The position numbers and the translations under genes are program-made. DNA of 64,000 bases from Escherichia phage vB_EcoM_VR26, in the sequence record NC_028957.1; one strand, written 5' to 3'. Each line of letters starts with the position of its first letter. Within the stretch, counting starts at the first letter, position 1. The notes under the pieces are model-generated. The model worked only from the letters and a program-made list of their open reading frames with translations, did no database searches and had not been told where the DNA came from. This document shows positions 16,600 through 57,572 of the stretch, piece after piece.

Positions 16600-16800
16600 A
16601 TGGGAACATTATTCTATCAGATATGGAAATTAACCAGTAAGAAAGACAAGAAGCTTATCATGGGATTTTTAGCTCTTGATATTTTCCTGTGGAACTTACT
16701 GGTTGTACCTATCGCCGCAACACAAGGGGTACACTTACCCCAGGTCACAATGGGGCATATCCATTCCATCATCGGTTACTTTACCGGAATCCCTTCCTAA
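16600..16800 (+). CDS. small hydrophobic membrane protein (paralog of 16394..16591)
   Basis: 66 aa from ATG at 16600 with AGGTGGA SD; LWNLLVVPIAATQGVHLP aligns with LWNFIVAPIALAHGVILP. Confidence 0.55.
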   Translation: MGTLFYQIWKLTSKKDKKLIMGFLALDIFLWNLLVVPIAATQGVHLPQVTMGHIHSIIGYFTGIPS

Positions 16801-17825
16801 ACTTTTGCGTACTTCGAAAGTCGCATTCTTGCCATCAACCCTTGTGCAACGTTATCAGCCATATATGATTCGATTTGTTCAGGGGTTGCCCCTTCTGATT
16901 TAACCATCTCATTTATGTCTTTTGTGTGCCACGGCGCATTATCCCAGAACATAACGGCTTCACCAGCCTCAACGAGTTTCTTCATACGTTTAATCGTATC
17001 AGGATGTCTTGGCTCGTTGTCCATTACCCATACTCTGGTTTCAGCATAAGGAACCGCTTCCAATGACAATGTGCCGCCAGTTATCGCAATGCTGTTAGGG
17101 ATAAACAAACTATCAATCGGACCTTCCATTACCCACACGCGCTTACGCTCATCAATCTTGTCTACCCCGTAGACTTTGGAAGCTTCTGGGTGAGCTTTGA
17201 TGGTGATATATTTTTGTGGTGCATCTTTGCGAAGAGCTCGTCCTTGGAAAGATTCGATTTCTTTTTTGCCGTTGAAGATAGGAATAACCAAGCGTGGTTC
17301 ATTCGTTTCATTCTTATACGTCCCAGGATTAACGGAGTTAACTAATGCAGGCCATTTGTTTGTAAACCATAGCCGGTCCCAAACACCAGCCGGAATACAC
17401 CGACTTTTTACATACTTAACTATCGGATGCGCTTCTGGTAAAGTATCGAGTCTTTCACAAAAAGCAAGCTGCTCGATAACCGGAGTTTTTTCTGGTTCTT
17501 TCGGAGTTTCGGTGACTTCATTGCGTTGTCGACCAAAGGCATTCTCCTTGTACTTCTCGACCATATATTCCCGGTGTAAATCTGGCTCAAACTCTTTTAT
17601 GTATTTGCTTATATGCGTGGAGTAGTCACAGTTAAAACACTTCACATAAACCGCACCATCTGCTGGATTGGTATACGCCCAGAATCGAGCCTTATGTGAA
17701 TCCTTCTGGGAGTCGCCACAAACTTTACATCTGCAGTTTGCCTTAAATGTGCTCCCGGTGACTTCTCTATAACGTGGTTGATACGATAAAGCTCTGACCG
17801 CAAATTCTTTATCAATATATGACAT
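16797..17825 (-). CDS. 61: DNA primase
   Basis: 342 aa; N-terminal zinc ribbon CRCKVCGD...CFNCDY; size matches T4 gp61. Confidence 0.9.
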   Translation of the reverse strand: MSYIDKEFAVRALSYQPRYREVTGSTFKANCRCKVCGDSQKDSHKARFWAYTNPADGAVYVKCFNCDYSTHISKYIKEFEPDLHREYMVEKYKENAFGRQRNEVTETPKEPEKTPVIEQLAFCERLDTLPEAHPIVKYVKSRCIPAGVWDRLWFTNKWPALVNSVNPGTYKNETNEPRLVIPIFNGKKEIESFQGRALRKDAPQKYITIKAHPEASKVYGVDKIDERKRVWVMEGPIDSLFIPNSIAITGGTLSLEAVPYAETRVWVMDNEPRHPDTIKRMKKLVEAGEAVMFWDNAPWHTKDINEMVKSEGATPEQIESYMADNVAQGLMARMRLSKYAKV

Positions 17826-18433: not shown

Positions 18434-18871
18434 TTAATCTCGCTTCATAAAGGCATTAAAAATTTGGTCGTCAACTGAATAAACGGGGTTTTCCAGAATT
18501 TTCAAAAGACTGTTTTTGATGTACTTACCAGGAATACCCATATTAACGACATCATTATTCAATTCATTGTCTGGATTGATGTCTTTAAATTCAAACCCTT
18601 CAAACTCAACCTTGTCTGGAATACCATCAGCGAAAAAATAAACCAATTGGTGCATTGTATTGCATGAAAATAATTTAGACTTGACTGCAATAAGTTCTTT
18701 CCAATGGTTTAATTCTTTGTTAAGAAGTTTATGAGCAAACGTAATTCTATCATCACTATCAACAAGAAAATAACCCAGATATTGAATCTCGTCGCTCCAA
18801 AACACCCTGTAGGCCTGTGCATTTGGATTTTTACAACGAAGTTTTTTGATAACCAAATTTCTGTTAATCAT
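18434..18871 (-). CDS. hypothetical protein
   Basis: ATG at 18869-18871 (MINRNL) with AGGTGA SD, 1 nt after sp stop; track start overlaps sp and is rejected. Confidence 0.45.
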   Translation of the reverse strand: MINRNLVIKKLRCKNPNAQAYRVFWSDEIQYLGYFLVDSDDRITFAHKLLNKELNHWKELIAVKSKLFSCNTMHQLVYFFADGIPDKVEFEGFEFKDINPDNELNNDVVNMGIPGKYIKNSLLKILENPVYSVDDQIFNAFMKRD

Positions 18872-18872
18872 T

Positions 18873-19166
18873 TTATTCACCTGTAACTTCTTTGACGATG
18901 TTTTCATTTTCAAAGTTAGGGTCACAATACAACACGTAATTATACTGCATAACCCCACCAGATGCCAACTGGTCAGATACTTCTTTGACCTTGTTTGGTT
19001 GGTCACGTTTAGTGATGTTCATGATGTCCGCGTAAATCTGGTGCTCAACTGCTTCCTGGTCAGCGGTCATTGACCACTCGCATAAGTCTTTATCATAACC
19101 AGCAGTAACTGGAGCTGCGTGACACGAAGCGAGGACTAAGATTGCTGCGATAGATAACTTTTTCAT
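18873..19166 (-). CDS. sp: Spackle periplasmic protein
   Basis: 97 aa; signal peptide; GYDKDLCEWSMTADQ and GGVMQYNYVLYCD match recalled T4 Sp. Confidence 0.85.
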   Translation of the reverse strand: MKKLSIAAILVLASCHAAPVTAGYDKDLCEWSMTADQEAVEHQIYADIMNITKRDQPNKVKEVSDQLASGGVMQYNYVLYCDPNFENENIVKEVTGE

Positions 19167-19224
19167 TTGAATCTCCTTAGTAGTTGATAGGGATAATATA
19201 CTGCATTATCCCCTTGTTGTACAC

Positions 19225-19791
19225 TTATTTTTCGTTTAAACGAATTTTTTGTTGATGTTGCTTTGCTGCAATAATATATTTTGCTTTTTCTAATGCCAAT
19301 TGTTTTTCAGTTCCATCCATCACCATAAAGTAAATCTGCCCAGCAACAGTTTGTGGAATTGTGCTTGGTAAATTATCTAAAAAAACTTTTATATTTTTTT
19401 GATGAATTTCATAAGCATTAAAACATTTTTTATAATTTATATAATAAGGGTGTACACCCCAAAATAATATTTTGTTTCCATGTATTGTGTGTTGCTTCAT
19501 TTCAACAGAAACTGGATAATCATTAATTATTATCCGTTTAGATACCAATTTATCAAATGAATATTCCCATTGTTCGGATGTAATTATATTTCCATTTAAT
19601 TTTACAATTTTATCACTTTTTTCAACTATATAATTACCACACACATATTTTGAGTAACCAGGCCTTGAAAATTTTATTGTTTCTTCCGACAATAATTCTG
19701 CTTTTTGCATATAACTATCATATGTACTAATAGAATATGCAGGTTTGGCAAGGCCGCACAATGCAAAAGCAATAATGAATAATTTTTTCAT
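19225..19791 (-). CDS. secreted protein, unknown function
   Basis: 188 aa; N-terminal signal peptide MKKLFIIAFALCGLAKPAYS; markedly AT-rich. Confidence 0.5.
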   Translation of the reverse strand: MKKLFIIAFALCGLAKPAYSISTYDSYMQKAELLSEETIKFSRPGYSKYVCGNYIVEKSDKIVKLNGNIITSEQWEYSFDKLVSKRIIINDYPVSVEMKQHTIHGNKILFWGVHPYYINYKKCFNAYEIHQKNIKVFLDNLPSTIPQTVAGQIYFMVMDGTEKQLALEKAKYIIAAKQHQQKIRLNEK

Positions 19792-20082
19792 TTAGATTTC
19801 CTCACAAAAGGCCCATTCAGCGTGATAAACTGTTGCGCCAGGGGTTGCATTCATTTGAACCAAGTCTACAGGTGAAATCACACGATATAGCTTAGGTTCT
19901 CCTCCAATTGAACGTGCTGCACGTCCAGCATAAATCTTCGCCAAACCAATGTCTTCAGTAAAGAAAACACGATTTAGATTTTTCTTACGACCAGTTTCTG
20001 ACAGGACTCCAGTTTCTTCTGGAGGACAAAGCATGTTATTGATATTTGCCAGGCTGCATGACCCATGATAGAAAGTTTTCAT
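19792..20082 (-). CDS. hypothetical protein
   Basis: 96 aa; TATAAT and TGTACA promoter upstream. Confidence 0.45.
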   Translation of the reverse strand: MKTFYHGSCSLANINNMLCPPEETGVLSETGRKKNLNRVFFTEDIGLAKIYAGRAARSIGGEPKLYRVISPVDLVQMNATPGATVYHAEWAFCEEI

Positions 20083-20108
20083 TTTATTCTCCAGTAGTTG
20101 ATAGGGTC

Positions 20109-20146
20109 ATTATACTATAAAGAAAAAGGGGTGTACACCCCTTTTA
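20109..20146 (-). promoter_or_regulatory. early promoter whose -35 TGTACA lies in terminator palindrome GGGGTGTACACCCC
   Basis: TATAAT 20109-20114; TGTACA 20132-20137; palindrome 20128-20141 followed by U-run. Confidence 0.5.
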
Positions 20147-20150
20147 TCAC

Positions 20151-20453
20151 TTATGCCAACTCATAATTGTGCATTGTCAGACAACGAATTTTTCCAGTAG
20201 TTGGGTGCATAACAGTCACACTAATTGTGCAATCATCACACACGTTAACAAAAGGTTCCGCGATAACAAATACTTCACCGCCTGCCAACAGATACTCACG
20301 AAGGCTTGAGCGAACCGCTGAAGGGTGAACATCGCTTTTGAGCTTTATTAATTTACCGGTTTGAATGCCAGATGCGATAAGAGCAGCACAGGTTTCATCA
20401 CGGCGAGCGAATTGTCCAAAGTAGTAACGATTCATGTCGGTTTGATTAAACAT
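20151..20453 (-). CDS. hypothetical protein
   Basis: 100 aa; AGGAAA SD; promoter cassette upstream. Confidence 0.45.
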   Translation of the reverse strand: MFNQTDMNRYYFGQFARRDETCAALIASGIQTGKLIKLKSDVHPSAVRSSLREYLLAGGEVFVIAEPFVNVCDDCTISVTVMHPTTGKIRCLTMHNYELA

Positions 20454-20569: not shown

Positions 20570-22009
20570 TTAGAATTTCATCTGCGCCGCGAGGTCGTCC
20601 AGGTCGCTCCTGTTGACCCTGGTTTGTCTATTCATTTCAGCCTGACGATTCATCTCACCAGTGGCTTCTTTCACCGTAGGGCCTTGTTTAGGAGCTGAAT
20701 CATCATCAACCTCATACCAGCGCTGATTACCTTTCTTAACACCCATCTTGAATTTATTATAGTAGTTCTTATCGCCATAACGAGACTTAAGCTGTTTGAT
20801 TAACTGCAGTCCCATTTGAGCGAATTCTTCGGTCTCAACAACACCCAACATAAAGTCGGCCGTGTGAGCAATACCAAAGGATTCTGCGATGTCAGCCATG
20901 TCAATCTCAGCTGCAACGTTTGCACCCCTGGTTGTCTGTGCTGCAGTCCACAGGACCACATTTTTCTCGACCGCCAGACCACGAAGTTCTTCTGCAACCA
21001 TCTTAATCAGGCCGTAACTGTTTTCGGTAAACGTTTTCAGTCTTGAGCTTGCACAGATTGCCAGGTAGTCAACAATAATCACATCCGGCACAAATCCTTG
21101 CTTCAGTTTGTACTCGTTCAGTAATGCACGGAACGTATCCGCATGAGCACCACCAGTTGGATATTGTTTTATCTTCAGAGTTCCAAGAGTCCCGGAAGCG
21201 CGCCATTTTTCCATCTTACTTTTGTATTCTGCCCATGATATATGACCTTCATCAATATCATCCAGAGATACATCCAGCAAGTTGGCATCAATACGTTTGG
21301 CACATACTTCTTCAGCCATTTCCATGCTTATATAAAGAACGTTATGACCAGTCTGAAGATAGTCAGCCGCTAACGAACAAAGTCCCAGAGATTTGCCGAC
21401 GTTTGTTCCGGCCAGTAAAACGTTCTCTGTTCCATACTCAACTCCACCCTTCGTGATTTTATTCAGGATGTTAATACGGAACGGAACTTTCTTCGATTTG
21501 TTTAGATAAGTCTGGAATCGAGCTTCGTAATCGTTTAACCAGTCATGACCCAGAGCAGAGTCAAAACAAATAGACAATGCATCGCGCATGATGTCAGGAA
21601 TAGCACCAATATCCGGGATTCGTTTATCACGTTTATCTTTCGGAAGTTCGGCATTACTCTGAATTTCGATAATCCTGGATGTTGCATTGAACATCGCAGA
21701 CTTCTGCACATACTTCTCGGTTTCTTTGACCAGCCATTCCTGGTCTTCTGGAGTATCAACCAGGACTCCTAAGAGTTTCTTTGTACCTTCGTATTCAACT
21801 TCAGAAAGGTCAGAACCGTCGAGTGCGATATCAAGTGCAGTCTTAGTTGGAACTGCTTGATATTCTTTTACATGTTCATTAATCGTATTAAAAAGGGTCT
21901 TCGCAGGACCCTTTTCAAAATATGTGTTATTCAGATATGGCCAGACTTTAACAAAATATTCCTTGTTAAAGAGTAGCTGGGATAAAATAGTTTCTACCAC
22001 TTCCACCAC
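20570..22009 (-). CDS. 41: replicative DNA helicase (DnaB-like)
   Basis: 479 aa; Walker A AGTNVGKS; N-terminus MVEVVETILSQLLF resembles recalled T4 gp41. Confidence 0.9.
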   Translation of the reverse strand: MVEVVETILSQLLFNKEYFVKVWPYLNNTYFEKGPAKTLFNTINEHVKEYQAVPTKTALDIALDGSDLSEVEYEGTKKLLGVLVDTPEDQEWLVKETEKYVQKSAMFNATSRIIEIQSNAELPKDKRDKRIPDIGAIPDIMRDALSICFDSALGHDWLNDYEARFQTYLNKSKKVPFRINILNKITKGGVEYGTENVLLAGTNVGKSLGLCSLAADYLQTGHNVLYISMEMAEEVCAKRIDANLLDVSLDDIDEGHISWAEYKSKMEKWRASGTLGTLKIKQYPTGGAHADTFRALLNEYKLKQGFVPDVIIVDYLAICASSRLKTFTENSYGLIKMVAEELRGLAVEKNVVLWTAAQTTRGANVAAEIDMADIAESFGIAHTADFMLGVVETEEFAQMGLQLIKQLKSRYGDKNYYNKFKMGVKKGNQRWYEVDDDSAPKQGPTVKEATGEMNRQAEMNRQTRVNRSDLDDLAAQMKF

Positions 22010-38320: not shown

Positions 38321-38360
38321 ATGATACATCATTCAAAGGGGCTTGTACACCCCTTTTTAA
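38321..38360 (-). promoter_or_regulatory. early promoter with TGTACA in hairpin loop, ATCAACTACTGATGAGG leader
   Basis: aaagggg-cttgtacac-cccttttt hairpin 38335-38360 after nrdH-like stop; leader runs into ATG at 38289. Confidence 0.5.
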
Positions 38361-57517: not shown

Positions 57518-57572
57518 GTTTGTTCTCCGTAGTTGATAGGGTCATTATAACCCTATCGTTTGGAGATGTAAA

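Follow-up and report, generated by a model that had tools for sequence, protein, structure and literature searches.

We consider it likely that, in the T4-like coliphage Escherichia phage vB_EcoM_VR26 (Gaprivervirus; genome of 171,541 bp), the coding sequence of dmd was replaced by an acquired gene, here called ORF188, whose product is probably exported, and that the promoter-like palindrome GGGTGTACACCC within this gene is a half-cassette, not a promoter of sp, most likely brought in by templated conversion. The analysis covered a stretch of 64,000 nucleotides (the window), whose nearest relatives by DNA are the gapriverviruses VR25, VR7, VR20 and SP18. On its minus strand, the genes follow one another in the order gp41, ORF100, ORF96, ORF188, sp, several small ORFs and gp61:

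20570-22009, minus strand: gp41 helicase.
20151-20453, minus strand: ORF100 (phrog_17014).
19792-20082, minus strand: ORF96, VR7 gp044-like, upstream of ORF188 (phrog_2110).
19225-19791, minus strand: ORF188, 188 aa, 100% identical to AVV66_gp039 (VR26 gp039), a hypothetical protein.
18873-19166, minus strand: sp (Spackle), periplasmic superinfection-exclusion protein, downstream of ORF188 (PF25676, E 3e-42).
16797-17825, minus strand: gp61 primase.

The VR26 paper (PMC8307508) mentions neither ORF188 nor dmd.

ORF188 had been singled out in the initial annotation as strongly AT-rich, more so than its flanks, and its composition indeed deviates from the average of the window. Its GC content is 27.2%, against 39.4% for the window and 42-43% for the flanking genes (ORF96, 41.9%; sp, 42.5%). 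It ties for the lowest GC among 63,433 sliding windows of 567 nt (fraction of windows with an equal or lower value, 0.0003), ranks first for low GC among 112 non-overlapping ORFs (z -3.35) and has the lowest GC3 of these ORFs (16.9%, mean 35.1%; z -2.66). The VR7 gp039-like gene located 3' of sp (18434-18907; 157 aa from the ATG at 18907) has 32.7% GC, the sixth lowest value among the 112 ORFs; unlike ORF188, it is also found in VR25 and VR7.

ORF188 is a true orphan, for which one other homolog was found. Neither DNA search nor tblastn detected it in 50,697 phage records (the tblastn matches were spurious, with E >= 0.01), and a plasmid search returned no homolog. Comparison with Pfam, PHROGs, NCBIfam, PADLOC and PDB gave no significant match, the best E-values (0.017-0.1) staying below the cut-offs; a match to eL33 in the PDB profile search (E 0.069) was taken as chance. 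A word-indexed search of 5.8 billion proteins retrieved two proteins only, VR26's own and P0002. The latter is 87% identical to ORF188 at the amino acid level and is encoded on a 972-nt metagenomic Logan contig (L002) of run SRR7532897, a run of which no mention was found in the literature searched. An exhaustive HMMER search of 1.84 billion representatives recovered ORF188's own cluster only, and pattern scans of IMG/VR, JGI metagenomes and GTDB genomes revealed no relatives.

Comparison of the two alleles nevertheless indicates that ORF188 is a real gene. They differ at 47 of 567 nt, with the frame intact in both, and dN/dS calculated from these two alleles is 0.31, or 0.28 when a variable patch described below is left out. 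A dN/dS of about 0.3 indicates that the gene is under purifying selection. Homologs in no more than two phages, an extreme AT content and the lack of a confident fold could all be expected if ORF188 were non-functional, either a decaying AT-rich remnant or non-coding recombination filler. Indeed, AlphaFold2 run on the two-sequence alignment gave an unusable model (pLDDT 42, pTM 0.29); the protein contains no internal duplication. Such an origin is nonetheless very improbable. By our calculation, an open frame of 188 codons at 27% GC would occur by chance with a probability of about 1e-7 (stop frequency of about 8.5% per codon). Moreover, the frame survives the 47 substitutions in both alleles, the dN/dS value is low, a conserved SD serves the start codon, and the features of a signal peptide are conserved.

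These features argue that ORF188 probably encodes an exported protein. By sequence inspection, a Sec signal is predicted at residues 1-20, in agreement with the earlier description of ORF188 as a signal-peptide protein. The N-terminus reads MKK-LFIIAFALCGLA-KPAYS/ISTYD (the slash marks the predicted cleavage point), with a charged n-region, a 12-residue hydrophobic core and small residues at -3 and -1, as in a type I signal peptide, and it is conserved in P0002. A lipoprotein reading based on Cys12 was rejected, the preceding residues, F-A-L, not forming a lipobox. The predicted mature protein has 168 aa, a mass of 19.7 kDa, a basic pI of 9.1 and two cysteines.

dmd is gene 61.5 of T4-like phages and encodes an antitoxin directed against RnlA and LsoA. 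All close relatives of VR26 carry dmd between genes 61 and 41. In SP18, dmd lies directly upstream of sp; in VR25 and VR7, the slot corresponding to ORF188 holds two small ORFs and dmd, and the flanks are about 95% identical to those of VR26. Judged from these alignments, ORF188 stands where the relatives have dmd. When region 19167-19850 was compared with all phages by BLAST, matches were obtained at the ends of the query only. A tblastn search with three Dmd proteins revealed no dmd homolog in the 64-kb window of the ~171.5-kb genome (best E 0.36), and VR26 is not among the named members of two Dmd clusters, which include VR5, VR7, VR20, VR25, SP18 and JS98. ORF188 itself has no sequence homology to the Dmd of T4, SP18 or VR25.

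The boundaries of the exchange can be placed as follows:

19789-19806, minus strand: left junction (SD-ATG), ...TGTGAGGAAATCTAAATG common to VR26 and dmd-carrying relatives through the ATG.
19225-19237, minus strand: last codons AAACGAAAAATAA (N-E-K-stop), with which SP18-type dmd also ends; on the 3' side, the coding swap extends to this point.
19237-19189, minus strand: stop region and sp promoter -35/-10, identical to SP18 at 46/49 positions and to VR25 at 27/49.
19189-19224 (hexamers 19223-19195), minus strand: sp early promoter TGTACA-17-TATATT, of SP18/TH15/L002 type, not VR25 type.
19179-19188, minus strand: leader ATCAACTACT, right crossover zone, 10/10 identical to SP18/TH15 and VR25; invariant in the five sequences compared.
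19178-19120, minus strand: sp SD and first codons, 58/60 identical to VR25 and 43-44/59 to SP18/TH15.

On the left side, VR26 is identical to VR25 through ...TGTGAGGAAATCTAAATG and departs from dmd directly after the ATG. The SD of ORF188 lies within the 3' end of ORF96, whose stop codon abuts the ORF188 start. On the right side, VR26 again resembles SP18 and TH15 from ACGAAAAATAA onward, so that ORF188 and SP18 Dmd end with the same codons, N-E-K-stop. The locus thus shares with dmd its slot, SD, ATG and last codons, and, as dmd does in SP18-type relatives, it adjoins sp on the upstream side. The products differ: ORF188 does not resemble Dmd in sequence, has three times its length and possesses a predicted export signal. 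T4 Dmd acts in the cytoplasm, and because of this signal ORF188 would not be able to replace it there.

A 14-nt palindrome, TTCGTTTAAACGAA, lies at 19231-19244, just before the ORF188 stop and beside the 3' junction, in both alleles; it may be due to chance, since 34% of codon shuffles contain an AT-rich 12-nt palindrome. The SD-to-start regions of sp (19154-19177), ORF188 (19779-19802) and ORF96 (20070-20093) are 75-83% identical over 24 nt, and sp and ORF188 both start with ATGAAAAARTTA (MKKL). These similar regions are possible substrates for a short-homology deletion of ORF188.

The right flank changes its affinity within a short distance. Upstream of the invariant leader the sequence follows SP18, and downstream of it VR25. 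Because of this switch, ORF188 and the sp promoter form the unit that sets VR26 apart from its backbone relatives, and the type of the promoter suggests that it travelled with ORF188. The metagenomic contig provides a second view of this unit. VR26 and L002 are 91.7% identical in ORF188 and 88% in the sp promoter, yet only about 62% in the sp gene, a contrast which argues that the cassette moved between divergent T4-like phages. The sp gene of L002 (contig positions 655-969) has at most 74% DNA identity to any of the 50,697 phage records, which suggests that the contig comes from an unsequenced T4-like lineage. Recent acquisition, which had been proposed from composition, is therefore supported at the level of sequence comparison: ORF188 is absent from the phage records, including those of VR25 and VR7, its sole other copy is a close one beside a distant sp, and the relatives hold other genes in its slot.

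We propose that ORF188 is a horizontally acquired accessory gene of the hyperplastic region bounded by genes 41 and 61. It would have replaced the dmd coding sequence, using dmd's own SD and ATG and ending in dmd's last codons, and would have recombined together with the SP18-type sp promoter, as a module, into a VR25-like backbone. The left crossover would have occurred at the SD-ATG, the right one within ATCAACTACT, the invariant leader of the sp promoter cassette.

The sp promoter belongs to a family of cassettes. At least 18 intergenic sites of the minus strand correspond to T[GT]TACA-N17-TAnnAT; downstream of most of them come a leader, (C)CCATCAACTACTgAGGAG or CCCATACTGAGTT, and a start codon:

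2757, 7213, 8289, 12387, 19223, 20137, 20533, 24716 and 38349, minus strand: first bases of cassette -35 hexamers.
40484, 42930, 45637, 46225, 50743, 54660, 57572, 60089 and 61943, minus strand: first bases of cassette -35 hexamers, continued.
20109-20145, minus strand: PeSL-type cassette upstream of ORF96; the hairpin AAAAGGGGTGTACACCCCTTTT embeds the -35 TGTACA and is followed, after 17 nt, by TATAAT.

In the cassettes at 20137, 38349 and 50743, a G4/C4 hairpin encloses the -35 hexamer. The AAAAGGGGTGTACACCCCTTTT hairpin (20145-20124) has a predicted RNA folding energy of -12.3 kcal/mol (z -2.2), and a similar cassette hairpin near 38350 one of -13.6 kcal/mol (z -3.2). The 20109-20145 cassette very probably drives ORF96 and ORF188, which are probably transcribed together, with translation of ORF188 coupled to that of ORF96. 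The promoter of sp (19223-19195) is conserved in SP18, in TH15 and in the metagenomic allele; only a weak AT-rich palindrome is found upstream of its cassette (19189-19224). An inverted repeat, GGGATAAT(N7)ATTATCCC (19190-19212), brackets the -10 of this promoter and is conserved in SP18, TH15 and L002. GGG...CCC arms also surround the -10 of other cassettes, for instance those at 57572, 46225 and 7213.

This organization resembles that of the promoter-early stem-loop (PeSL) cassettes known in RB49/phi1, T4/PST and KVP40/nt-1, which have been associated with the formation of mini-circles and with orphan-gene indels and replacements (PMC2839356, PMC4122927). PeSLs are described as combining a terminator hairpin, a sigma-70-like early promoter and an SD, between small genes of the hyperplastic region (Arbiol et al., 2010, PMC2839356; PMC4122927). 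A promoter, a leader with SD, a small gene, a stem-loop and variable gene content are likewise recognized, from the DNA letters, at 20109-20145 and 19189-19224. As in the PeSL shuffling reported in these papers, the exchange in VR26 brings in an orphan gene, is bounded by a cassette and would involve a crossover in the conserved stretch from -10 to SD. Two features differ from the published description. The -35 TGTACA lies inside the G4/C4 stem-loop in VR26, while the stem-loop of the published PeSLs is upstream of the promoter; and the left crossover is located at the SD-ATG common to dmd, not in a second cassette. The ORF188 exchange appears to fit PeSL-type modular shuffling, with its right breakpoint in the leader of the sp cassette and its left one at an SD-ATG without cassette. 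Since the left crossover is not in a full cassette, the term PeSL-mediated applies strictly to the right side alone.

Inside ORF188, the initial annotation had noted a palindrome at 19448-19459 followed by a TATAA-like sequence. Both are present, the coding strand reading ...GGGGTGTACACCCTTATTATATAAATTATAAAAAATG, and the 12-nt palindrome GGGTGTACACCC stands exactly at these positions, with a second exact copy at 20129-20140. Two features have to be considered here:

19447-19460, minus strand: internal GGGGTGTACACCC(T), -35/stem core, coding for W-G-V-H-P (codons 111-115).
19440-19465, minus strand: hypervariable patch of 26 nt, containing 12 of the 47 differences between the alleles.

The sequence does not support the proposal that sp is transcribed from an internal promoter at this site. 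On its coding strand, TTTTGGGGTGTACACCCTTATTATATAAATTATAAAAAATG, the site has the -35 hexamer TGTACA of the VR26 early promoters, and at a spacing of 16 nt the -10 position is occupied by TATAAA, from which the final T is missing; at the 17-nt spacing of the family, the -10 position reads ATAAAA. With a weight matrix built on 15 of VR26's own promoters, the site scores 4.3 bits, about 3.5 standard deviations above background (-26 ± 9) but below every genuine site (11-29 bits, leave-one-out). A generic sigma-70 scan does not call it, no ATCAACTACT leader follows it, and it is located inside ORF188, whereas 18 of the 18 strong sites are intergenic. Moreover, it is absent from the second allele despite the same arrangement of ORF188 and sp, and sp has its own conserved promoter (19223-19195) 230 nt downstream of the site.

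Recognition by the late transcription machinery has also to be considered. The sequence TATAAATT (first base 19441, minus strand) is one mismatch away from the T4 late consensus TATAAATA (7/8) and no other variant of this kind occurs on the window's minus strand, where four sites have the exact consensus; in a sequence so AT-rich, however, such a variant is unremarkable. In view of all this, it is very unlikely that the palindrome, together with TATAAA or TATAAATT, forms a working promoter, either sigma-70 early or gp55 late, for the 3' part of ORF188 and sp. Two other candidates were rejected: an intrinsic terminator, the internal hairpin having a folding energy (-5.7 kcal/mol, z +0.42) reached by 125 of 200 shuffles, and a MotA-box middle promoter, TAATGCTTAT at 19417, which has no properly spaced -10. 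With respect to the PeSL features, the internal site 19447-19460 has neither a stable stem-loop, nor a complete promoter, nor a leader and start, nor an intergenic position.

The resemblance of the site to a cassette is nonetheless close. It is identical at 13 of 13 nt to the core of the cassette located 681 nt upstream, and at 18 of 20 nt when the comparison is extended (20128-20147); the 20-mer GGGGTGTACACCCTTATTAT has no exact match in IMG/VR. Degraded "half" PeSLs, which kept the -35 and the stem and lost the -10, have been described (Comeau et al., 2014, PMC4122927). In VR26, the half-cassette is in frame, mid-way in an intact coding sequence, an arrangement not found described in the parts of PMC2839356 and PMC4122927 that bear on such elements.

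The palindrome coincides with the region in which the two alleles diverge most. Their identity is 54% inside the 26-nt patch and 93.5% outside, and none of 50,000 permutations reached 12 differences in a segment of this size. In L002 the patch reads CTTCGGCGAGGTGAACCGCATTATG, without palindrome, and encodes LLRRGEPHYV in place of VR26 LFWGVHPYYI. Synonymous differences amount to about 4 in 10 codons of the patch, compared with 15.5 in the other 177, and non-synonymous differences are also elevated. The increase of both classes of change suggests that mutation or recombination, and not just selection, has acted on the patch. Seven of the 12 differences (gene positions 331-345) bring, by our reading, VR26 to the sequence of the cassette. 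The other five, which are G/C in L002 and A/T in VR26, are not explained by a cassette template and count against conversion. Over the whole gene, the VR26 allele shows a drift toward AT, with which these five agree, 27 sites being G/C in L002 and A/T in VR26 and 14 the opposite. Since two alleles are available, the direction of change at the patch is not established, and L002 may have lost an ancestral palindrome.

The palindrome is probably either the scar of a short conversion or a coincidence in a variable loop. According to the latter explanation, the codons for G-V-H-P would happen to spell the cassette core in a fast-evolving surface loop. The low-confidence structural model places the patch between two strands, 8 of about 12 substitutions in it are non-synonymous, and both alleles are locally GC-rich owing to Gly, Pro, Arg and Trp codons; the five differences that do not match the cassette would also be accommodated. 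When the codons of ORF188 were shuffled, however, a 12-nt palindrome containing 8 or more G/C appeared in just 0.17% of cases, and a shared 13-mer including the -35 hexamer of one of 15 early promoters in just 0.3%, although both tests were picked after the match had been seen. The extension of the match to 18/20 and the raised synonymous change in the patch are not expected either from a coding coincidence, which we regard as a possible but rather unlikely origin. We favor, with somewhat better than even chances, a short templated conversion as the most likely one: the internal GGGTGTACACCC would be a half-cassette copied from the cassette 681 nt upstream or a similar one, and the conversion would have landed in a tolerant surface loop of the ORF188 protein.

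As to expression and function, ORF188 would be expressed early from the cassette promoter at 20137-20109, coupled to ORF96. After export by Sec and cleavage behind AYS, its product would function in the periplasm as a basic protein of 19.7 kDa. Like Spackle, the product of the adjacent early gene, it would be made early and be a small exported protein, with a predicted Sec-type signal beginning MKKL; unlike Spackle and other T-even periplasmic accessory proteins, it shows no sequence similarity to these proteins and has no Pfam or PHROG match. Adjacency to sp, which is the sole support, suggests a role at the envelope. If a guess, and a weak one, is to be made, its target would most likely be the cell envelope, with a function in superinfection exclusion or in protection from envelope-level attack.

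A joint reading of these observations can be formulated, though it is unlikely to hold in full. According to this reading, conversion would have put a cassette core in an intact gene, PeSLs would seed new hot-spots of recombination, and points at which genes might be split, within coding regions, and VR26 would represent a T-even-type phage that naturally lacks dmd and has a new, envelope-acting exported orphan. If this were true, the birth of a module boundary would have been caught in the act, and a recombination event joining 19447-19460 to 20128-20141 would release a 681-bp circle that contains ORF96 together with the part of ORF188 encoding the N-terminal half.

The swap of orphan genes at PeSL-type cassettes in the hyperplastic region of T4-like phages is a known phenomenon, of which VR26 is a new, well-resolved case. 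It offers an example, resolved to the base pair, of accessory-gene exchange in T4-like phages, delimited by a ribosome-binding site held in common and by a conserved promoter leader; the ORF188 module is also present in a far more divergent phage (L002). Two points are of modest interest, the apparent natural loss of dmd and the presence of a cassette core in frame within a coding sequence. The internal half-cassette, known from two alleles of the gene of which one carries it, bears on the spread of regulatory cassettes. The ORF188 protein, for which about 1.8 billion representative sequences contain no relative, may represent a new phage function at the level of the envelope. As for dmd, the antitoxin it encodes lets T4 grow on hosts with RnlA or LsoA. 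VR26 has been proposed for the biocontrol of STEC O26:H11 (PMC8307508), and the apparent loss of dmd may affect its host range on toxin-bearing strains.
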